From NCBI GenBank assembly GCA_023920165.1, contig CP089280.1, forward strand, positions 248,001 through 312,000: DNA of 64,000 nucleotides. Reading direction: 5' to 3'. The notes under the pieces were generated by a model. That model saw only the letters and a program-made list of their open reading frames with translations, ran no database searches and was not told where the DNA came from. A program made the position numbers and the translations under genes. Shown here piece by piece: positions 14,446 through 29,194 of this stretch (position 1 is the stretch's first letter; every line of letters starts with the position of its first letter). Source of the DNA: Curvularia clavata (Eukaryota).

Positions 14446-14870
14446 GAGTAAGACCTTGCAGCTTGAACGTGGCAGCCACTCTTTTGGTATTTGTTATCTT
14501 GTGGCGCTGCTAAGAGCGGTCCAGTCTTCTTGGCTTTGTACTTGATATAAAATCACATTAGCCGCCGTCGCAAGCTCACGGGTCAGGCTTTGTACACAAG
14601 AAAAATAGAATCATGCGCAGCGTAATGTTGTAGGTTGTGTCAGCAAAGCAAAAATAGAAGGTGATATGGCACTTCATGATTTCAATATCAGACGCCATTC
14701 TTCAGTAAATTTGTGCGTCTAAATTCCGTCTCCCTAAGAATCTGAAATAAGCTCCTTTCAGCTGAATATAGGACAGAACCCCGCACAGCCGCACTACTAC
14801 TGTCTAGACACACACGATAACCTGGACTTGATTCTCTTCCCTCTGACTCTCTTATTACGGTCCCATCAAC

Positions 14871-16676
14871 ATGCTCGCTTACCGATACCAGCCACTACAG
14901 TGCAGCGACTCAATCCGTCTTCTTGTCCTTCATCCAAGTCCAACCCAGTTTGATCCCGTTCTATGTACAATACGACACAGTCGACTTTCTGACACATCCC
15001 TTAAGTACGAAGCATTGTCGTATACTTGGGGCGATGCCACTCAAAAGCGAGCAATCTGCTTCGATGACGGCTCCAGAGAATTGCTTGTCACGGAAAACTG
15101 TCACAGCGCCCTTCGGCACCTGCGCTACACTCATGAAGAGCGGTTGCTATGGGTAGACGCCATATGTATTAACCAGGAAAATCTTATGGAACGAGCAAGT
15201 CAGGTTTGCATGATGGATGAGATATTTGAACGCGCATTCAATGTCATGGTGTTCCTGGGAGAACTAGATTCGCGAAACAGTATTTTGTTCGAGGAACTAG
15301 CAGCAGGGGATGAAGTCATATCGCGCGTAGGACATTGCGACAGACCACCGCCGAGTAGGGTTGTCATTCAGCAGCTAGAGGAGCTGTTTCAAAATCCGTG
15401 GTTCAAAAGAGTTTGGGTATTGCAAGAAGTGTGTGCCAAAAGCTCCGTTACATTCATGTGCGGCTCCGCCCGCTTTTCCTACTTGAGTCTCCTAAATCTA
15501 TACATGGGTCATCGTGGGACGGTGGTGACTAAGGAATTCTGGCCTCTGACTACGCAGTGGATCCGCCAACCTCCGGAAGAGTTTTCAACACCACAGTTCA
15601 GCTTGTGGAATCGACTTGGCGAGAGTCGGAATTACTTGGCGACTGATCCCAGAGATCGAGTCTTTGCTCTGAAGTCTTTGATCGGTCTTGACCAGTCAAG
15701 AATGGATCGTCTGATCGACTATACGAGGAGCGTTGAGGAGTGCTTTACCGATGTTGCAACCTTTCTCCTACCTGTGCTAGGGCTTCGTTTGCTCACTGCT
15801 GCTCGTCATCCACACCGAAGACATATGCCGTCATGGATTCCAGATTGGTCTCAGACGCTTCCACTGCAGCTTTTGAGCTTTTTGGTTGAGTTTCCAAAAT
15901 CCAATGAGCCTGTGTCGCGCACCAGCGCTGCCAAAAAACAACGACACAAAATACAAGCATTCTTAACAGAGGACAACGAGCCTAGTCTAGAACTACATGT
16001 CACAGGCTGCCGTTATGCGCAAATAGTGAAAAGCAGTCAAGTTTTCCAGTTCAATAGCGGAGAGGATGCTATAAGACAGATGAAGAAGCTATACTACAGC
16101 CTGGATAATCTTAGGGGTTTCGTCGGTACGGAAAGCAAGATCTGTGATGATCCTACCATGTATCTGCCCCTCGATGAAGCTATCCTACATAGTAAGTACA
16201 AATTGCTCCTGCCCTTCGATTCTCCCTAACCAATTTGTAGCCATGAATTCTATGAGTGACATAGAACTCGATATGCACCTGAGGCGTGGGTCCTTGACCG
16301 GGATAGTAAGTCTAATTTTCCCATATATCGTGAAATCTTAGGCTGACATCAAAAGCATGTGTACTTTTTTTCGAACGTTGAAATCATGCGCGATTTATTC
16401 ACCTCCCTCCAAAATTGCAAGATCGCCCTTATGTGCGATGATGATTTGGTCATTGTGCCAGAGGCCGTACAACCTGGAGATATGATCTGCGTCCTTTCAG
16501 GAGCCATTTCACCATGCGCTCTACGAGCGTCTCCAGACGGAACCTGGAAACTTATCAGCGGCGACTGTTATATATTTACGGACCATTTTCGAGCGTATGG
16601 GGAGGAGTCATTCTTCATGTGCGACAAGTTTGTGGCGTGTAACGAGTATATGGCAGAAGAGTTTATACTGCGCTGA
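14871..16676 (+). CDS. HET-domain (HET-6-like) heterokaryon incompatibility protein
   Basis: IRLLVLHP, YEALSYTWG, LWVDAICINQ, WFKRVWVLQEV, ATDPRDRVFAL and PSWIPDWS motifs. Exons 14871-16191, 16241-16305, 16356-16676 (two GTAAGT...AG introns join in frame). Confidence 0.92.
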
Positions 16677-17327: not shown

Positions 17328-18152
17328 ATGCCACCACCAACTAATGCAGCCACTCACCCGTCCCTTGCCTCGCGGATGAAAGCCTATGAGGCAGAATATG
17401 ACCACACGCTACCTCTCGACAAGCCCATCATTCTTCGTCTCGATGGTCATGCCTTTTCCCGGTTCACGTCACATTTCGCGCGCCCTTTTGACTCGCGCAT
17501 CCACCTCGCCATGACATCCACCAGCAGTGACTTGCTCCGGTACTTTCCCCAAGCCACAGTCGCGTACACGCAATCCGATGAAATCACCCTTGTCTTCCCA
17601 GAAGGCGTGCAGTCTTTTAATGAGCGCGTGCAGAAACTCTGCAGCCTAAGCGCGAGCTACTGTTCCGTGCGGTTCCACGCGCACCTCGCTGCCTATCTGG
17701 AGAGCATGCCGGACCCCCCTGTAGTTGCAGGTGACGGCGATGTGGCAGAGCTGCTGTCAACAGTACATTTCGACGCTCGTCTGTTTGCTGTGCCGGATGT
17801 TCACGAGGCTGTGAACAATCTCATTTGGCGCTGTCGCAATGACGCCGTGCGCAATGCTGTTTCTGCTTTCGCGCGAACTATGTTTTCCACAGAGGAGATG
17901 CACGGAAAGAAGTCGCAGCAGCTTATCGATGCGATGTTAGCAGAGAAAGGGGTTAGGTTCGAGGATGCGGTGCCAAAGTGGGCAATTGAGGGTTGTTTGA
18001 TTAAAAGAGAGCAGCACGAGCATGAGGGTGTGAATCCAAAGACGGGGATGACGGAGAAGACGATGAGGACGAGAACAAGGATTGAGCAGCATGGGGTCAG
18101 GGTCTTTAATGAGGAGGCCATCAAGATAGTCACGGAAAAGTACTGGTGGTAG
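17328..18152 (+). CDS. Thg1-like protein (TLP), tRNA guanylyltransferase / 3'-5' RNA polymerase family
   Basis: Intronless 274-aa ORF with RMKAYE, RLDGHAFSRFT, RPFD, AYTQSDEITL, FDARLF and WRCRNDAVRN motifs. It lacks the HINNLYN motif of canonical eukaryotic Thg1. Confidence 0.9.
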   Translation: MPPPTNAATHPSLASRMKAYEAEYDHTLPLDKPIILRLDGHAFSRFTSHFARPFDSRIHLAMTSTSSDLLRYFPQATVAYTQSDEITLVFPEGVQSFNERVQKLCSLSASYCSVRFHAHLAAYLESMPDPPVVAGDGDVAELLSTVHFDARLFAVPDVHEAVNNLIWRCRNDAVRNAVSAFARTMFSTEEMHGKKSQQLIDAMLAEKGVRFEDAVPKWAIEGCLIKREQHEHEGVNPKTGMTEKTMRTRTRIEQHGVRVFNEEAIKIVTEKYWW

Positions 18153-18366
18153 GAACTTGGTCTTACGCTGGGCATACATCACTATCGCCAACGAGAAGGA
18201 AAAGCCCATTGCGCTGTCATGACTACAAAAGATACGCCATGAACAAAAGAAAGAAAACATAACCAACGCTCACATGTAACTGCATTTCGCACTACCATAT
18301 CATACCCCTCCATCCTAGCCATCTAGCCCAATCCCGCCAAAAACAAACCTCTCTTGTCGAGGCGAC

Positions 18367-18374
18367 AAAAAAAA
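18367..18374 (-). terminator. Pol III oligo-T terminator of tRNA-Pro
   Basis: T8 run on the minus strand, 7 nt downstream of the tRNA 3' end. Confidence 0.7.
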
Positions 18375-18381
18375 GAAGATG

Positions 18382-18538
18382 GGGCCTGACCGGGATTCGA
18401 CTACAACGCATGTTAGAGACTGCGTTCGTATTCTGAACCAGAATGGGTGATAACTTACACCCGGGGCCTCCTGCAGAATAGGCTTTGCAGAGTAATAGCG
18501 TACCCAAAGCAGGAATCATACCACTAGACCATCAGGCC
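18382..18538 (-). tRNA. tRNA-Pro(TGG) with a 27-nt canonical intron (18476-18502) and a 58-nt spliceosomal-type intron in the T-loop (18401-18458)
   Basis: Removing both inserts gives a 72-nt cloverleaf GGCCTGATGGTCTAGTGGTATGATTCCTGCTTTGGGTGCAGGAGGCCCCGGGTTCGAATCCCGGTCAGGCCC: acceptor GGCCTGA/TCAGGCC, anticodon stem CCTGC/GCAGG, T stem CCGGG/CCCGG. 70/72 identical to the copy at 28500-28584. Confidence 0.9.
18401..18458 (-). other. Spliceosomal (U2-type) intron-like insertion within the tRNA T-loop
   Basis: Minus strand GTAAGTTATCACCCATTCTGGTTCAGAATACGAACGCAGTCTCTAACATGCGTTGTAG: GTAAGT donor, CTAAC branch point 11 nt before the end, TAG acceptor. Length is typical of the mRNA introns in this window. 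Confidence 0.85.
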
Positions 18539-18953
18539 GGATTTTGGTTGCTCTTAAGGGAACACGATTGATGGGAGGAGGGCAGGCCTGAAAGAATATG
18601 AAGCGAGCGAAATGAGGGGGCTTTCGTCTGATGTGAGACGGAATGAGTCGAGGTGGGGGGAAAGGGGTAAGCGAGAGTGTGGAATGACTGTGCTGTGGGT
18701 ACCTACCCCTCACTGCTTTCCTTTGTTCGCTTGGATACGAGTACGAAGGTCCGCGCTTGTACGCCAGCTATGACTCTCGACTACCAGCAGGTCAAAAAAT
18801 GCAGCAGTCGAAGGACAATAGCCAAAGGATTGACGCATAGTGCAATTGAAATTGGTATCTCGTAATGTTGCAGGTCATGGTCCCGTTACGACATGTACAC
18901 ATTACAACGAAATATAAAAATACAACCACCGTGTTCTTCTCCCTCTTTGGCCT

Positions 18954-21836
18954 CTATGTCAGATCCAGGACTTCTACAGCACTTTCTCTCCACTTGCGTC
19001 TGTCTTTGCCTTTGAGTAGGGCCTCTGGGGATGCCTTTTCCGGTCTCTCCGGGCTGTCAATGTCTGCAAAGTCCCAAGCACCCACTACACTTCTTCGAAG
19101 TATGATGGCGCGCTTCTTCTTACTCTGAGCCTTCCATGCTGCCGGTGGTGATATAGGTTTCTGTGCAGGTGGTGATTGGTCCACTGATGAGTGCGACGAA
19201 TGTGTTGGATGAGGAGACGCGGGCGTTGCGTTCGTCGCCTGTGGCCCTGGCGCTCGCTCTCCTGCGGGCGACGAGCGTTCCGTTAGGTCAAGCACATCCA
19301 GCTTCGGAGACGCTGATCTTGGTTTTGCTGCTGCAGGATTGGGAGAAGTAAGGTCTAGGGTGTCGGGACTGGATGTCGTTTTGCTGAGACGTGGCGAAGT
19401 ACGGCGAGGTGGATTTGGATCGAAAACATCTTTGATACTCTTCTTTTTACCCAACGTGGATGTCGACGAAGTGGAACTTGTAGATGCATTTGACGATATC
19501 GAAGTCAAAGGCGGTCGTATTGTCGACGATCTCACAGATGGTTGCTCGCTGGTAGTATGCCGTGCGGCTTCTGGACGCCTTGGTGATGAGAGAGTCAAGT
19601 CCAACGATTCAACGTCTTTGGATGGTTGTCGAAGTTGTGATTTGGTAGGGACTGGCGCTTGAAACAATAAAGGAGTTGCACCTCGCTGCTTAGTTGGTGA
19701 CACTGATGCCCGCCATGCATCCAAGGTGGCTTGCATTGGCACAGACGAGTCGCGAGACGCCCTCGTTGTAGATGCGTATTTCTCTGTCCTTGTCTTGGCC
19801 TTCTTCGCCGGCAGCGGCGAAGGCGAAGGATGTGCCGGAGAGTCAATCAAGTCCAGTGTTTCTATCGTCTTCGGGAGTGGAGGCGTGGAAGGTCGGTCCA
19901 AGATCGTACTAGTATCGGCCGGTAATGTCTTTGAGCGCTGAAATGGAGCTCGCCTTCTCCTTTTTGCTACACTTGGAGGCAGGTCTCCTATGACTGGAGA
20001 CGGTGACTTTTCGCGCCCGGGTGAGGACTCTGGTGTTGTGGTCCGTGGTCTCACTGGCGGCGAGGACAACAGGTCGATTGTCTCGTTGTACGACGCTTCA
20101 GCAGGCGGAGATGCACGTGCTGGGGGATGATCAACCTTGTCTTGCGCCTTCGCGAGTGCTCGTGAGGCTCTCAACCCAGGTTTTGTGACCTTTGCGAAGG
20201 CTTCTATGCGAACTTGCGGTTGATCCTTAGTCGCCTTGGTCCGTTTCGTGGTAGTCCTGGCTTTTGGTGCGGTAGAGTCAGTGTGCTGAACTGGTGCTGC
20301 CCGTCTAGGTTTCTGCTTTGTCTGTCGCCCAGCCTCCCAGTCCTGAACTTTGAGCGGCACGCCGACCTTGACAAATGTCTCCATGACCCATATACGTGCC
20401 GGTTTTTCAGGATCGAATTTGGTGGGCCCACGTTTCTTAGGGCCGTCGTCCTCCAAGTCCAAAGGAATTTCTTCGTCGAGATCCTCATCTCCGGCGCCTT
20501 GTTGGGAACTAGGTGGTGGTAGGTCTATATCGTCGTCTGGATCTTCCTGACTAAGATCTATCTTCACAAGCTCAACAGGAGTGAAGCTTACGCGAAGCTC
20601 CGTACAATGGTCAGTGATCGCGTGCTGTCGTTTGCCGTGAAGTCCTTTGATGAGAGTTTCTTCATCCTCTTGTATGGCTTGTAGGTTATTAGTAGGCAGG
20701 CGATCGACTCGCTCAGCGCGCATCCGAAGTTCGCGCACGACGAGAGAGGGTGCCAAACTGCGAATAAAGTGTTTTGCGCCCTCGAGCTTGGCCCAATCGA
20801 AAGCATCTTGTGTGAACTCGCGCAGACCTGGAAAGTCGAGCTCCTGATCCCAGTTGATTGACCGACGTAACTTGTCCAGTCCAGCTTGGTTCGAGATTGC
20901 AGGATGCGTGTAGTACCCCAGAATATCCATTCGGGGAAAATCGTCTGGAATCTTGAGCGCACCATGCTTGCGTTTGAAAAACTTGCTCTCGTTTGTTTTT
21001 AGCTCGTGCTGTAATCGTTCCCTCCATTGGGATATAGCTCTGGAGTCGTTTCTGGGGATCCTGCACAATTCGGCACCAAAACCTGCCTTCGCGGCCTCGC
21101 ATGCAGTCTTGGGTCCGCAGCCAGGTATACCCTCCGGCACATAATCTCCTCCACTCATCAGAGCAACCAAGATCATGCCTTCGCGATCCAATCCAGAAGG
21201 CCCGTTTTTGGTTTCGACCGCATCGTATACGTTGACATGGGTTGGCGTCTTTCCTGATTTTTCTGGAGACCAATTTCGGAGGGTCACACCACTCCCAAAC
21301 ATGAGCGTATCCACATCCTCGCTCAGGACAGCGTCAACGATGCCTTCTCGTTGTAGTAAAGCGCACTCTGCCTCTGCCTCGCCTGGGGCCAGATGTATTG
21401 GGTATCCGAACTGCTTCAGCAGCTGTTTGGCGAGAAACTCGGGGATAGAAGCAACATTTGGACCGGTGCGTTTGTTGCGCTTGAAGGGTGGTTTATTTGG
21501 TCCATCAAAGACAAAGACGGGGTGGATCGCGAGGGAGATCAAGCGCAGGAGGCGGTAGTAAAAGGTTCGCAACGCAGGATTCGTGCCACCTGGTCGTATT
21601 CAGCATTCCGATGTATGCGCATGTCTCGAGAGACTCACCTTTGCTAGCTTGGATCTGGAAAAGCCAGATGGATGTGTCAATAGCGATGCGCAACGGGCGG
21701 CCAGTCTCTTCGAATTTTTCGACGGCGAGCTTGGACAGGGCTATGCGTGTGCCGGGGCCGATTTCTTTGTAGATGCTGCTAGTGTTAGAACTGGATCGCG
21801 AGATGCCGCACGCTCGACTTACCCGTGGATACCCAT
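18954..21836 (-). CDS. YEN1: XPG/Rad2-family Holliday junction resolvase (Yen1/GEN1)
   Basis: MGIHG...RIAIDTSIW N domain, PVFVFDG, APGEAEAECA, SEDVDTLMFG, GGDYVPEGIPGCG, long disordered tail. Introns at ~21822-21776 and 21638-21590. Confidence 0.9.
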
Positions 21837-27314: not shown

Positions 27315-28499
27315 AAGGGAATATGGCACATGTTTCACCGGAGAAGATGGCAGTGCAAGAGCATAACATCTTTTCAGATCCCTGCAAAGGGTAGCACAGT
27401 ACTTCGGGTTAGCATAACCTGAAGCTGTACAGTTCTGTTAGGCAAACAGAGCGGCCGATGAAGCATGACGGTAAAAAGTCTTGTGGAGGCTCCCCTAGGA
27501 CGAGTTCGCATCTTACCGCGATCTAGGGGTACGGCAAGACAACCACTCTTGTCGCCAAGACGAACTCATCGATGCCACTTGCGTTCCCTAATTGCGATAG
27601 TATAGATTGACAGGAAGGAAGGTGCAATACCATTCCCACAAGCGAGAACTGAGGCACGCAAGCATTGTGTAATACACTAAGAATTGTTCTTCTATTCGCC
27701 CAGCTAGTCAGAACATGAGCCGATGACCTGAGTAGCTACTTGCAGAATCATACTATAGCTGCTCTCTCAGCCTAAGCCTGCTATAAGTAATTCGGAAGAA
27801 GTGGCAGATATCTCATAATTTTAGCCAAAGTACCGAAGCGCAAGTCTTATTTGTCACATGGCACAGCATACAATGAGAAGCGTGGCTTGATCAATACAAC
27901 TGTATTTGGGCTACAGACTGAGTTGTCGTTAGCGCCCAAGGCAATGCCATGGTTTGACAAGCTGTTGCACACTGAACTGGCTTCGCTGTATTTTTCGTTG
28001 TTTTACAAAATAAACTACTTTTACCTAAGCAATAGTTAGTCTTTCTATCTTCTATGACTCCTTTCACGTAAGCTCTTCCTATTTTTGCTTGCAATGATAA
28101 TAGCATGCTATAGCAAATGGTAGGCGAAATGGCTTCCTACACAACCTAAACGGCTAGAAGGTGCAGTTCATATCCTACATACAAAGACAGCGTGTATAAG
28201 CTGTAGTCGGAAATGGGATAGGCAGGGCGCTAACGCAAAGAAGAAATCCATAGAGCTACTAAGCTGAGCGCACGCAACTCTCAACCTTTCCAACTGTAGC
28301 TGTTAACGATTCACACAACATCTCTGATATAAAAAATGCATCAACCCAGAGATTACTTAACAAGATAACTAAAATCTCCTTAGTCTGGCGTTCTGTACGC
28401 TAAAAAGAACAAAAAGAAAATTTGACATGATTCGAAGGGAATCTCAGCCTCCTTAAAGATATGCAGACAAAAATAAAAAAAGAAAGCCAATTATCCAAG

Positions 28500-28584
28500 G
28501 GGCCTGACCGGGATTTGAACCCGGGGCCTCCTGCAGTTTAGATGCGAACCCAAAGCAGGAATCATACGACTAGACCATCAGGCC
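28500..28584 (-). tRNA. tRNA-Pro(TGG) with a 13-nt canonical intron (28536-28548) and a G18-to-C variant in the D-loop
   Basis: GGCCTGATGGTCTAGTCGTATGATTCCTGCTTTGGG[TTCGCATCTAAAC]TGCAGGAGGCCCCGGGTTCAAATCCCGGTCAGGCCC. Intact B box; T-runs downstream at ~28469-28481. Confidence 0.92.
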
Positions 28585-29194
28585 GAGGAGATGTTGGTTG
28601 TTCTGATGACTAATTTCGGAATTAGCACATTGATATTGAGAAAATCATCATAATTGCTGACACCTGGAGTTTGAAAAGCCAAGAGATGGTTCCTGAAGGT
28701 GTTTTGTGGATGCAGAGAGTGAGTAAAGTGGAGATGGTGGATACTAGTAGTACTAGTGGGTGTGGCATGAGTCATGGGTCAGCATCATGAGTCTGGGGGT
28801 ATTGCTAGTAACACTGTGAGTATTATTGGGCAAGGCTTGTCGGTTGCAGTGGGTAAAAGGTTACCAGGAGGTTGAGTATCATTCTGTACATTACAAGCAC
28901 ATCTTCTTCAAAGGTACATTGAGGGACAAGCGATTGAGGTCTAGCTGTGCTTTGCACAGAGGGCTGTCTTATAATATATCTGGGATATATTTAAGTGGGT
29001 AGTATTAGAGCTAGTGATATTTCAAGATCGATGTATGCAGCTTCAAAATGATCGGAACATCAGAATGAATTATCCTTCACCAATCATCCGTTTACACCAA
29101 TGACTGGCCAAAATCCATGCTCCAGAGTACGCAGATCTCATCCAATCACATTATAATCTCATGAATTCCCCCTCAAATACCTATCATAGCCCCC

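Follow-up and report, generated by a model that had tools for sequence, protein, structure and literature searches.

A tRNA-Pro(UGG) gene of Curvularia clavata with a probable spliceosomal intron in its T-loop

Textbooks treat two types of intron as separate matters, the spliceosomal ones as a property of Pol II transcripts and those of tRNAs as substrates of the SEN endonuclease, and the relevant passages of PMC12530127 and PMC10275265 do the same. A locus of Curvularia clavata raises the question of whether a single small RNA can contain both. The window, by which we mean the whole stretch of 64,000 nt analysed here (contig CP089280.1 of assembly GCA_023920165.1, positions 248,001 to 312,000 of the forward strand), carries on its minus strand, at 18538-18382, a tRNA-Pro(UGG) gene with two interruptions, as seen by inspection of the sequence and with ARAGORN. 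The shorter interruption, of 27 nt, is located where tRNA introns usually are. The longer, of 58 nt, lies in the T-loop and looks like an intron of a protein-coding gene. Our full-text literature search found no description of a spliceosomal intron in a tRNA gene. We consider it probable that the 58 nt are a true spliceosomal intron of the U2 (GT-AG) type, which interrupts the T-loop of a functioning nuclear tRNA-Pro(UGG) gene in a filamentous ascomycete, and that this intron is conserved, old and selected in a fungal lineage.

Anatomy of the split gene

The features of the locus are collected in Table 1. The initial annotation of this DNA, made from its letters alone, had described a 58-nt insert with GTAAGT, CTAAC and TAG between T54 and T55, and every one of these elements is present on the minus strand. 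The branch A of CTAAC, at 18413, is 12 nt ahead of the last base of the insert, and the 3' exon begins with TCGAATCC at 18400, directly past it. The same annotation held that removal from GT to AG restores the T arm with all stems intact, that a normal 27-nt intron follows position 37, that a T8 terminator follows the gene, and that a paralogue lacks the insert. All of this stands. With introns allowed, ARAGORN reports no tRNA at the raw locus; after deletion of the 58 nt it calls a tRNA-Pro(tgg) of 73 nt that contains a 27-nt intron. The boundary of the 27-nt intron is ambiguous by one T, and the ARAGORN call is one base later than ours. Rfam gives no match at gathering scores across the window and none at E<=1 over 18250-18700. 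The expectation that tRNA finders would miss the gene is thus borne out by both programs.

Table 1. Features of the split tRNA-Pro locus and its surroundings (window positions)
Feature	Positions	Strand	Basis
Thg1 (tRNA-His guanylyltransferase), convergent with the tRNA gene	17328..18152	+	Pfam, tblastn; neighbour conserved in related loci
T8 run, Pol III terminator-like, 8 nt past the discriminator	18367..18374	-	inspection
3' exon: T55-T60 (TCGAAT), T stem CCCGG, acceptor TCAGGCC, discriminator C	18382..18400	-	identical in 14/14 related complete genes, unforced by the search pattern
58-nt spliceosomal-type intron between T54 and T55	18401..18458	-	GTAAGT 18458-18453, CTAAC 18416-18412, TAG 18403-18401
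Candidate hairpin with the 5' splice site	18445..18462	-	MFE fold and 15-gene pairing count
Middle exon: T38, 3' anticodon stem GCAGG, variable loop AGGCC, T stem CCGGG (18464-18460), T54 (18459)	18459..18475	-	inspection, ARAGORN
Canonical 27-nt tRNA intron after position 37	18476..18502	-	ARAGORN, MFE fold, related genes
5' exon: acceptor, D arm, anticodon stem, anticodon, G37	18503..18538	-	identical in 14/14 related complete genes, unforced by the search pattern
Upstream elements: TATA-like CATATTC (about 18600-18594) and CCCATCAATC (18574-18565)	18565..18602	-	alignment
GEN1/XPG-family gene, upstream, same strand as the tRNA	18954..21836	-	Pfam; stop 416 nt before the tRNA
Paralogous tRNA-Pro(UGG), 13-nt canonical intron, without T-loop intron	28499..28584	-	ARAGORN and inspection

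After excision of the 58 nt, the gene yields a cloverleaf with intact stems, and oligo-T is found downstream of it and not inside it. The anticodon TGG is at 18506-18504, and the A-box region is uninterrupted in the window's 5' exon. The internal promoter as a whole is not intact: the B box, located in the T-loop by what we take to be its consensus, is split by 58 nt. The 27-nt intron is at 37/38, the place of a SEN intron, and its 3' part, GCCTATTCT, pairs with the anticodon region in the MFE fold. This part is kept in most related genes and reads CACCTATTCT in L016. Upstream of the gene, the CCCATCAATC element ends 26 nt before the tRNA 5' end, and a CATC in this region is invariant in 13/13 aligned sequences, the paralogue without the T-loop intron among them. 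The mature sequences of this paralogue and of the split gene differ at two positions, a D-loop G/C and a T-loop G/A. The paralogue is 10 kb away, and with it in the genome the cell need not depend on the split gene. Relatives have a third paralogue, which agrees with the split gene over its alignable parts, the first 25 and last 19 nt. These parts include both differing positions, so the third paralogue's product may be indistinguishable from that of the split gene.

The insert itself has a GTAAGT donor, a CTRAY branch site, a suitably placed AG and a length within the range of the host. The window has 6 matches (5 elements) to the strict pattern GTAAGT..CTAAC..YAG, where 100 shuffles give an expectation of 0.16. 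The four other elements measure 47-56 nt, and the T-loop introns of related genes described below measure 51-58 nt. One of the four, at 21776-21822, is a verified 47-nt intron of the GEN1-like gene, which has two short 5' introns, the second being GTGAGT..CAG. The strict pattern alone is informative, as the loose one, GTRNGT..CTRAY..YAG, shows no enrichment, with 30 matches in the window versus 28 in shuffles. When 327 loose GT..AG candidates from the window and 20 related loci were deleted singly, a tRNA spanning the new junction arose only from the T-loop inserts of tRNA-Pro genes. No second copy of the 58-nt intron was found in the window, where matches of 9-13 nt are at chance level.

Introns in the D- and T-loops of tRNA genes have been described in archaea, the red alga Cyanidioschyzon and nucleomorphs, where they are marked by a bulge-helix-bulge (BHB) motif. 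The T stem of the present gene is able to close around the insert, and the insert could accordingly be read as a non-canonical tRNA intron that the tRNA splicing endonuclease cuts via such a motif. We regard this reading as extremely improbable. Inspection and the MFE fold give no arrangement of 3-nt bulge, 4-bp helix and 3-nt bulge over both junctions, and there is no pairing between the initial bases of the intron and those that open the 3' exon. The eukaryotic SEN enzyme finds position 37/38 by measuring from the mature domain, and the insert is at 54/55. Furthermore, the invariants over 15 genes (the window's and 14 related ones) are GTAAG(T), CTAA(C/T) and AG, spliceosomal signals that are irrelevant to SEN.

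Comparison with the tRNA introns already described leads to the same distinction. Canonical nuclear tRNA introns are placed at position 37/38 and removed by the SEN endonuclease plus a ligase in those passages of PMC10275265 that treat them; the same passages contrast tRNA splicing with spliceosomal splicing and do not mention spliceosomal introns in tRNA genes. The split gene has one such canonical intron, with its anticodon-intron helix, but the 58-nt insert differs from it in position, in its GT-AG and branch signals, and in having neither BHB nor ruler geometry. The disrupted tRNA genes (with multiple introns, split or permuted) treated in PMC3978253 and PMC4390854 likewise have interruptions in the D-loop, the T-loop and other sites, sometimes with several introns, and standard tRNA finders miss them. 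According to the abstracts, however, their processing depends on the tRNA endonuclease and a BHB motif, whereas the tRNA-Pro gene carries spliceosomal signals.

Conservation in related tRNA-Pro genes

Related genes were collected by scanning metagenome contigs for the exon-intron junction. The scan gave 20 loci, or 17 distinct sequences: 14 complete genes, 2 cut by contig ends and 1 mutated, shortened copy. The pattern demanded the junction itself, so these numbers describe genes with the intron and make no claim that it is kept in all orthologues, those without it being undetectable by design. The initial annotation had proposed to look in related genomes for tRNAs split in the same way, and had named conserved splice signals around a divergent interior as support. 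All 14 complete genes are tRNA-Pro genes split at GGGT/TCGAATCC by GT...CTAAC/CTAAT...AG, with the signals kept around a diverging interior. The donor, which the scan forced only as far as GTRNGT, is GTAAGT in 15/15 genes (window + 14). The branch site was left free by the scan. CTAA is invariant in 15/15 genes, with CTAAC in 6 and CTAAT in 8 of the 14, and an AG abuts the 3' exon in 14/14 (CAG 8, TAG 4, AAG 2). All 56 exon bases that the pattern left free match those of the window in 14/14 complete genes. Deletion of the GT..AG inserts produces a tRNA in each of the 14, which ARAGORN calls Pro-tgg in 13; in the remaining gene, L012, it places the long intron differently and calls Gln. As they stand, none of the 15 split genes is found by ARAGORN (0/15). 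A T run of at least T5 occurs within 25 nt 3' of the tRNA in 15/15.

The surroundings of these genes have changed much more. The T-loop intron interiors are homologous yet diverged, with a mean column identity of 61%, and the flanks are at 47%. The neighbouring proteins are just 58-75% identical to those of the window. Thg1, at 72-75% amino-acid identity, is convergent to the tRNA in 10 loci. GEN1 is upstream on the tRNA's strand in 4 loci, as in the window, but it is convergent in L003, L011 and L018, so that the T-loop intron is there antisense to GEN1. In L011 and L018, roughly 1.5 kb of sequence upstream of the tRNA contains no large ORF. Judged from these arrangements, the T-loop intron travels with the tRNA and not with a neighbouring gene.

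Some related tRNA-Pro genes contain one or two further GT-AG inserts in the same tRNA. Across the family, the insert positions are 10/11, 11/12, 20/21, 34/35 and 54/55, and the A-box region is also split in L003 and L011. The 34/35 insert, which interrupts the anticodon, is present in L009 and L016 and absent from L001, and the T-loop introns of L009 and L001 are identical.

An insertion into a tRNA gene may also be a sign of decay. By this account, the locus is a dead tRNA pseudogene with a chance insertion, and the joined contigs described in the next section come from the DNA or RNA of relatives in which the insert was never present or has been lost. There is a paralogue free of the insert, the gene has an interrupted internal promoter, and shortened dead copies of the family do occur. 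The initial annotation had itself named decayed splice signals or tRNA stems at orthologous loci as the mark of such a pseudogene. Instead, stems and exons are intact in 14/14 genes, which keep the 56 free exon bases, a canonical intron whose end pairs with the anticodon, the branch site, the AG and the terminator, while the intron interiors, the flanks and the neighbouring proteins have diverged to the extent given above. Decayed stems or exons free of constraint are thus not seen among the 14 related genes. The truly dead copy, an inverted one on the minus strand of L001/L006, is unlike them: it has two substitutions in the 5' exon, its intron ends after about 20 bases and it has no 3' exon. 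In addition, the probability of GTAAGT, a placed CTAAC and YAG in a random 58-nt insert is about 1e-7 by our own arithmetic. A dead pseudogene is therefore a very unlikely explanation of the locus.

Elements inside the intron were considered as well. In a candidate hairpin at the 5' splice site, G51-G53, T54 and the intron G+1 (18462-18458) pair with CACCC (18449-18445) around the loop TAAGTTAT. Over the 15 genes, 73/75 cells are paired and the changes lead to wobble pairs only, against 40-66% for slid controls; the 5' side is invariant, so two-sided covariation cannot be seen in this set. RNAalifold gives no consensus structure for the 15 introns. A hairpin enclosing the branch site was rejected (66% of cells paired, with 328/500 shuffles as high), and a central one (alignment columns 28-32 with 41-45) is not supported, being at 70% paired no higher than controls. 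A substitute for the B box within the intron was also rejected. The best site of the window's intron has 6/10 specified positions, which 61% of shuffles equal. A motif like GGTTCGA or GATTCGA is visible in many introns, but scored against an 11-nt B-box consensus it does not surpass shuffles in 14/15, L001 alone reaching p=0.01. T runs within the 15 T-loop introns reach T4 at most, which is roughly the chance level by our own arithmetic. A maximum of T4 is compatible with read-through by Pol III, and we do not count it as evidence.

Contigs joined without the 58 nt and the question of the polymerase

If the insert is spliced, molecules should exist that retain the 27-nt intron and lack exactly the 58 nt, as the initial annotation had proposed. 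Such molecules are found as contigs in three runs from close relatives. The contigs of X1, X3 and X24 join 18400 to 18459 exactly and retain the 27-nt intron. X1 and X3 come from organism A (two studies) and X24 from organism I, three studies in all, and the organisms are about 98% identical to the window. The join is unambiguous, its ends read CT..AC on the plus strand, and 195 or more bases flank it on either side; over the tRNA exons and the 27-nt intron the contigs otherwise match the window with no differences.

Whether the joined contigs reflect splicing depends on what they are made from. The library label of the runs is a guess, a point in favour of the pseudogene account, as is the divergence of the relatives from the window by about 2%. 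The depth of adjacent contigs differs 4-7 fold (3.3 vs 24.6; 5.6 vs 21.6), and the cover breaks between convergent genes. From this uneven depth and these gaps, the contigs look like RNA and not like single-copy DNA. The genomes of organisms A and I, about 2% diverged, could also be without the intron, in which case the join would not be a product of splicing. Precise presence or absence of a GT-AG insert does occur in the family (L009 and L016 versus L001). We take the contigs to be probably RNA of genomes that hold the intron. A contig of X9 (organism B, about 89% identity) crosses the insert, and the genome of this organism therefore holds it. This contig was rejected as a sign that the insert stays unspliced in vivo, as contigs are strandless and it may derive from a transcript of the convergent Thg1 gene.

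The joined contigs, of 3640, 3460 and 589 nt, begin 216 nt or more upstream of the tRNA and continue beyond T8 as far as about 18200 or 18133. Because they pass T8, they are not pre-tRNAs made by Pol III, and are probably long Pol II transcripts. Those of X1 and X3 span from about 18200 through the GEN1-like gene. In X24, a gap separates the 589-nt tRNA contig (depth 21.6) from the GEN1 coding contig (depth 5.6).

These lengths introduce a further reading, according to which the intron is real but the spliced unit is a Pol II transcript, which belongs either to the GEN1-like gene, as its run-on or 3' UTR, or to a non-coding host of its own. RNase P and RNase Z would then release the tRNA, or the tRNA-shaped module would act in some other way, and Pol III would not be involved. 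The sole molecules observed without the 58 nt are indeed long, and the depth gap in X24 hints at a separate transcript over the tRNA. The B box is split, as is the A box in L003 and L011, and the conserved TATA-like and CATCAATC elements could equally serve Pol II. On the other hand, the run of at least T5 in 15/15 genes is a Pol III feature with no obvious use for Pol II, and the upstream elements are common to the window's ordinary tRNA-Pro gene without the T-loop intron. L003, L011 and L018 have no GEN1 upstream of the tRNA on its own strand, and L011 and L018 lack large ORFs in the nearest 1.5 kb or so. A contig over two genes does not demonstrate a single transcript. Moreover, molecules of pre-tRNA size are rare in ordinary RNA-seq libraries, so their absence says nothing. 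On balance, we judge an exclusively Pol II origin to be unlikely.

The explanation that we prefer is transcription of the split gene most likely by Pol III, which is favoured by the TATA-like and CATCAATC upstream region shared with the ordinary tRNA-Pro gene, the intact A box and the T-run terminator. The spliceosome would then excise the 58 nt at GGGU/GUAAGU...UAG/UCGAAUCC, rebuilding the T-loop with no base gained or lost. The tRNA pathway would follow, with trimming of the ends and removal of the 27-nt intron by the SEN endonuclease and tRNA ligase, and a mature tRNA would be made. This order of steps is a proposal. A tRNA-Pro with a T-loop intron thus probably needs the spliceosome plus the usual tRNA-splicing enzymes. 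The split B box, together with the split A box of L003 and L011, fits badly with ordinary TFIIIC-driven transcription.

Spliceosomal introns in other structural RNA genes and the meaning of the locus

The intron of the Schizosaccharomyces pombe U6 gene reportedly carries a B-box match, a report attributed to Frendewey in 1990. In contrast, the tRNA-Pro intron splits the B box, and the motif inside it is no better than chance. In S. pombe and other fungi, the genes for U6 snRNA can contain mRNA-type introns (Tani and Ohshima 1989, 1991; Canzler et al. 2016, all referenced in PMC5855946). The likeness is close, as far as the passages of PMC5855946 on U6 go: a short GT-AG intron with a branch site, within a small conserved non-coding RNA gene of Pol III type, passes through the spliceosome. 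Reverse splicing is proposed there as the origin of U6 introns, and the initial annotation suggested that the tRNA-Pro intron, too, may have arisen in this way. U6 is located in the spliceosome's active site, which makes reverse splicing plausible, and a tRNA is not.

Spliceosomal introns are also present in U1, U2 and U5 snRNA, U3 snoRNA and ascomycete rDNA, according to passages of PMC5855946 and PMC5832005. These, too, are normal-looking fungal introns in structural RNA genes, at few preferred positions and partly lineage-specific. However, the genes that the passages cover are transcribed by Pol II or Pol I (U3 per PMC5832005), none of them also depends on another splicing system made of protein only, and tRNA genes are not among them. 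The treated part of PMC5855946 likewise names no tRNA among the non-coding RNAs with spliceosomal introns.

Extending the argument from the window to the family, we lean, with less assurance than for the intron itself, toward a wider interpretation. In a filamentous ascomycete lineage, the spliceosome may be a regular and required enzyme of tRNA maturation. The tRNA-Pro(UGG) family would have one to three mRNA-type introns beside the canonical one, with both promoter boxes split, and would be transcribed via the TATA-like/CATCAATC region into uncapped Pol III precursors that are spliced before SEN acts. The family would then represent a general, undescribed class of tRNA genes that standard annotation misses.

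If this is true, tRNA becomes one more of the few structural RNAs that the spliceosome processes, and one RNA of 72-73 nt relies on two splicing systems that are unrelated to each other. One would also have to ask how a gene can be transcribed when its A and B boxes are both split. The family would provide a compact system for the study of intron gain and loss, in which closely related genes differ by an intron inside the anticodon. Finally, since ARAGORN recovers none of the 15 genes and Rfam is blank at the window's locus, fungal tRNA gene counts would be underestimates.

Anatomy of the split tRNA-Pro gene

A tRNA-Pro(UGG) gene of the window lies in five pieces, with a canonical intron in the anticodon loop and a second, 58-nt insert between T54 and T55. 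Sequence reading, ARAGORN, and comparison with an ordinary paralogue confirmed every detail of this arrangement as described in the initial annotation. The mature sequences of the paralogue and the split gene have two base differences. It had also been predicted that tRNA finders would miss the gene. In fact, ARAGORN with introns allowed reported no tRNA at the raw locus, and Rfam gave no match there, either at gathering scores or at E<=1. When exactly these 58 nt were taken out, ARAGORN found a tRNA-Pro(tgg) of 73 nt whose intron measures 27 nt. We consider it quite likely that the insert is a functional intron of the spliceosomal type and that the tRNA gene around it is a working one.

Features of the split gene and its surroundings (window positions) and of extra inserts in related genes (tRNA positions)
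Feature	Position	Strand	Remarks
HET-domain protein	14847-16229
Thg1 (tRNA-His guanylyltransferase)	17328-18152	plus
T8 run	18374-18367	minus
3' exon	18400-18382	minus	19 nt, begins TCGAATCC
CTAAC of insert	18416-18412	minus	branch A 12 nt before last insert base
Insert	18458-18401	minus	58 nt, starts GTAAGT, ends TAG
Middle exon	18475-18459	minus	17 nt, ends T stem CCGGG + T54
Canonical intron	18502-18476	minus	27 nt, after position 37; one-base ambiguity
5' exon	18538-18503	minus	anticodon TGG at 18506-18504
tRNA-Pro(UGG) gene, five pieces	18538-18382	minus	sequence reading
TATA-like and CATCAATC elements, conserved	18565-18602	minus	alignment; matching upstream regions of 11 loci
GEN1/XPG-family gene	18954-21599	minus
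tRNA-Pro(tgg) paralogue	28584-28499	minus	ordinary, 13-nt intron
Extra insert	10/11		L003
Extra insert	11/12		L011
Extra insert	20/21		L018
Extra insert, within anticodon	34/35		L003, L009, L016

The gene content of the window is fungal and includes a HET domain, a typical feature of filamentous ascomycetes. The GEN1 stop lies 416 nt upstream of the tRNA gene on the same strand, and Thg1 is convergent with it. The strict pattern GTAAGT..CTAAC..YAG has six matches (five elements) in the window, where 0.16 would be expected. Removal of one element (21776-21822) joins MGIHG to IYKEIG..., giving the MGI..G start usual in XPG-family proteins, so this element is a real mRNA intron. The tRNA insert therefore has the ordinary intron signals and size (47-58 nt) of its host. 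Furthermore, when 327 loosely defined GT..AG candidates in the window and 20 related loci were removed one by one, a junction-spanning tRNA appeared at the tRNA-Pro T-loop inserts only.

Conservation and turnover among relatives

Metagenome contigs were scanned with the final 16 exon bases 5' of the insert followed by GTRNGT. This query demanded the junction, so that intron-less orthologues are invisible and the donor is partly forced in its yield of 20 loci (L numbers) with 17 distinct sequences, namely 14 complete genes, two partial genes, and one truncated inverted copy. Two loci (L008 and L009) are cut at contig ends and are intact as far as present. All 14 complete genes share the window's 56 exon bases outside the pattern and its insert site, with an insert of 51-58 nt that is closed by AG directly 5' of the 3' exon and has CTAAC or CTAAT shortly before its end. 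ARAGORN reported a tRNA in none of the 20 unedited loci. Taking out the GT..AG inserts gave a tRNA in all 14 complete genes, called Pro-tgg by ARAGORN in 13; L012 has a 51-nt canonical intron, and ARAGORN puts the intron elsewhere. In an alignment, 15 T-loop introns are homologous with a mean column identity of 61%; GTAAG, CTAA, AG, and a small number of further columns are invariant. The relatives thus bear out the expectation that tRNA-Pro genes would be split at the same site, with splice signals kept and interiors diverged.

A dead tRNA pseudogene is contradicted by the retention of exons, splice signals, and insert site across the 14 complete genes. An endonuclease-type, non-canonical tRNA intron is contradicted as well, since neither folding nor inspection found a bulge-helix-bulge and conservation falls on the spliceosomal letters. 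In L001, L002, L006, and L007, a truncated inverted copy is present on the minus strand, some 1.4 kb away from the intact gene. Its D arm (5' exon) carries two substitutions, its intron stops after about 20 bases, and the 3' exon is missing; this copy presents the picture of a dead split tRNA-Pro gene.

Thg1 (72-75% protein identity) is convergent with the tRNA gene in 10 loci, and this conserved neighborhood is probably plain synteny. In L008, L010, L015, and L017, GEN1 (58-64% identity) shows the window's arrangement, upstream of the tRNA gene and on its strand. In L003, L011, and L018, it is convergent with the tRNA gene and the intron is antisense to it; the intron is therefore part of the tRNA gene rather than of the GEN1 message.

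Several relatives carry extra GT-AG inserts with branch sites in the same tRNA. The tRNA-Pro(UGG) gene at L003:1334-1589 (+) has four interruptions, three GT-AG inserts (after positions 10, 34, and 54) and the canonical intron, and a 3-nt exon (GGG) separates the 34/35 insert from the canonical intron. L009 and L001:4364-4512 do not differ by a single letter in the T-loop intron and hardly differ in the canonical one. However, the 34/35 GT-AG insert of about 50 nt is present in L009, as in L016:28-226, and absent from L001. Inserts are therefore precisely gained or lost over short evolutionary distances, and this difference is a recent event of that kind. The canonical intron of the relatives is 15-51 nt long. 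In the fold, its end forms pairs with the anticodon region; this end is GCCTATTCT in the window and in 13 of the 14 complete genes, and CACCTATTCT in L016.

RNAalifold found no consensus structure in the T-loop introns, and two proposed intron hairpins were unsupported. At the 5' splice site, exon GGGU and intron G+1 (18462-18458) pair with a conserved CACCC at intron positions 10-14 (18449-18445). In the alignment, 73 of 75 cells are paired (slid controls, 40-66%) with nine one-sided changes, all to wobble pairs; the exon side is invariable, so the support is compatibility, not covariation. Such a hairpin (18445-18462, minus) would put the 5' splice site into a loop with UAAGUU, and its formation would be in competition with that of the T stem.

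Contigs lacking the insert

A search of sequencing runs listed 24, each with less than half of the sampled words of the window stretch. Contigs of X1 and X3 (organism A, two studies), X24 (organism I), and X9 (organism B, a more distant relative) were compared over 18000-19300. Contigs of X1 (3640 nt), X3 (3460 nt), and X24 (589 nt) join 18400 to 18459, skipping exactly 58 nt. The join is unambiguous in position with at least 195 bases on either side, and the skipped stretch is bounded by CT..AC when read on the plus strand and by GT..AG on the tRNA strand. These contigs retain the 27-nt intron, and this intron and the tRNA exons equal the window's; the 20 differences listed for the long X1 contig are all in the flanks. 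The molecule that the initial annotation named as a test, keeping the 27-nt intron but without the 58 nt, thus exists as contigs, and to call them RNA is a guess. This guess is favored by features unlike single-copy DNA: uneven depth of adjacent contigs (3.3 vs 24.6 in X1; 4.3 vs 22.5 in X3; 9.7, 21.6, and 5.6 in X24), gaps in cover of the convergent-gene region (18165-18205 in X3; 18066-18132 and 18755-18997 in X24), and long contigs that stop near the GEN1 5' end. Alternatively, the genomes of A and I may lack the 58 nt, a precise loss being possible given the gains and losses among relatives. The X9 contig runs continuously through the insert, with 46 differences and three gaps over 425 nt relative to the window. 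The insert therefore predates the split of the window's organism from A and I.

In X24, the contig over the tRNA (18133-18754; depth 21.6) is deeper than the contig of the GEN1 coding region (5.6), from which a gap divides it, and may come from a distinct transcript that covers the tRNA gene; its end at 18133 presumably consists of Illumina adapter letters. Organism A contigs have 17 nt fewer than the window at 18794-18810, an indel in the spacer that runs from the GEN1 stop to the tRNA gene. Relatives (X3 and X9) also hold a further tRNA-Pro paralogue, compared on 18382-18400 and 18514-18538. Its first 25 and last 19 bases equal those of the split gene, with 58 rather than 113 bases between them; it therefore has no T-loop intron and a different canonical intron of about 30 nt.

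Transcription and precedents

The insert-less contigs extend upstream of the tRNA and beyond T8. As RNA, they would therefore be long transcripts, probably from Pol II, and not Pol III pre-tRNAs. A Pol II host transcript carrying the split tRNA is the main rival to Pol III transcription driven by upstream elements, which we propose tentatively. Pol III is favored by the T-runs (at least five T within 25 nt downstream in 15/15 genes), the intact A-box region in the window, and upstream elements common to an ordinary tRNA-Pro gene. Their distances upstream of the tRNA 5' end are about 20-30 and about 55 nt, and the same arrangement precedes the intron-less paralogue (28585-28654, minus). The 70 nt upstream of the tRNA align at 47%, with CATC of the CATCAATC element invariant in 13/13 sequences. 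This region may be a promoter element, or else a 5' leader that is long and structured. A short inverted repeat, such as ATCTCTTCAAGAGAT in L005 and L019, separates the CATCAATC element from the tRNA in many loci. The B box, split by the insert, and the A-box region, split too in L003 and L011, count against ordinary TFIIIC-driven transcription. The S. pombe U6 intron contains a B-box-like motif (Frendewey 1990, cited in PMC5855946), whereas a similar substitute within the tRNA-Pro T-loop introns matched no better than chance.

Spliceosomal introns are recorded in U6, U2, U5, and U1 snRNAs and rDNA (PMC5855946) and in fungal U3 (PMC5832005), and PMC12530127 and PMC10275265 hold tRNA introns separate from them. 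A full-text search of largely open-access literature returned no description of tRNA genes with spliceosomal introns. The reading in the initial annotation is supported wherever a test was possible. Spliceosomal introns are known in small structural RNA genes; here a probable one lies in a tRNA, beside a canonical tRNA intron, and relative to the literature covered we judge it to be the first such case.
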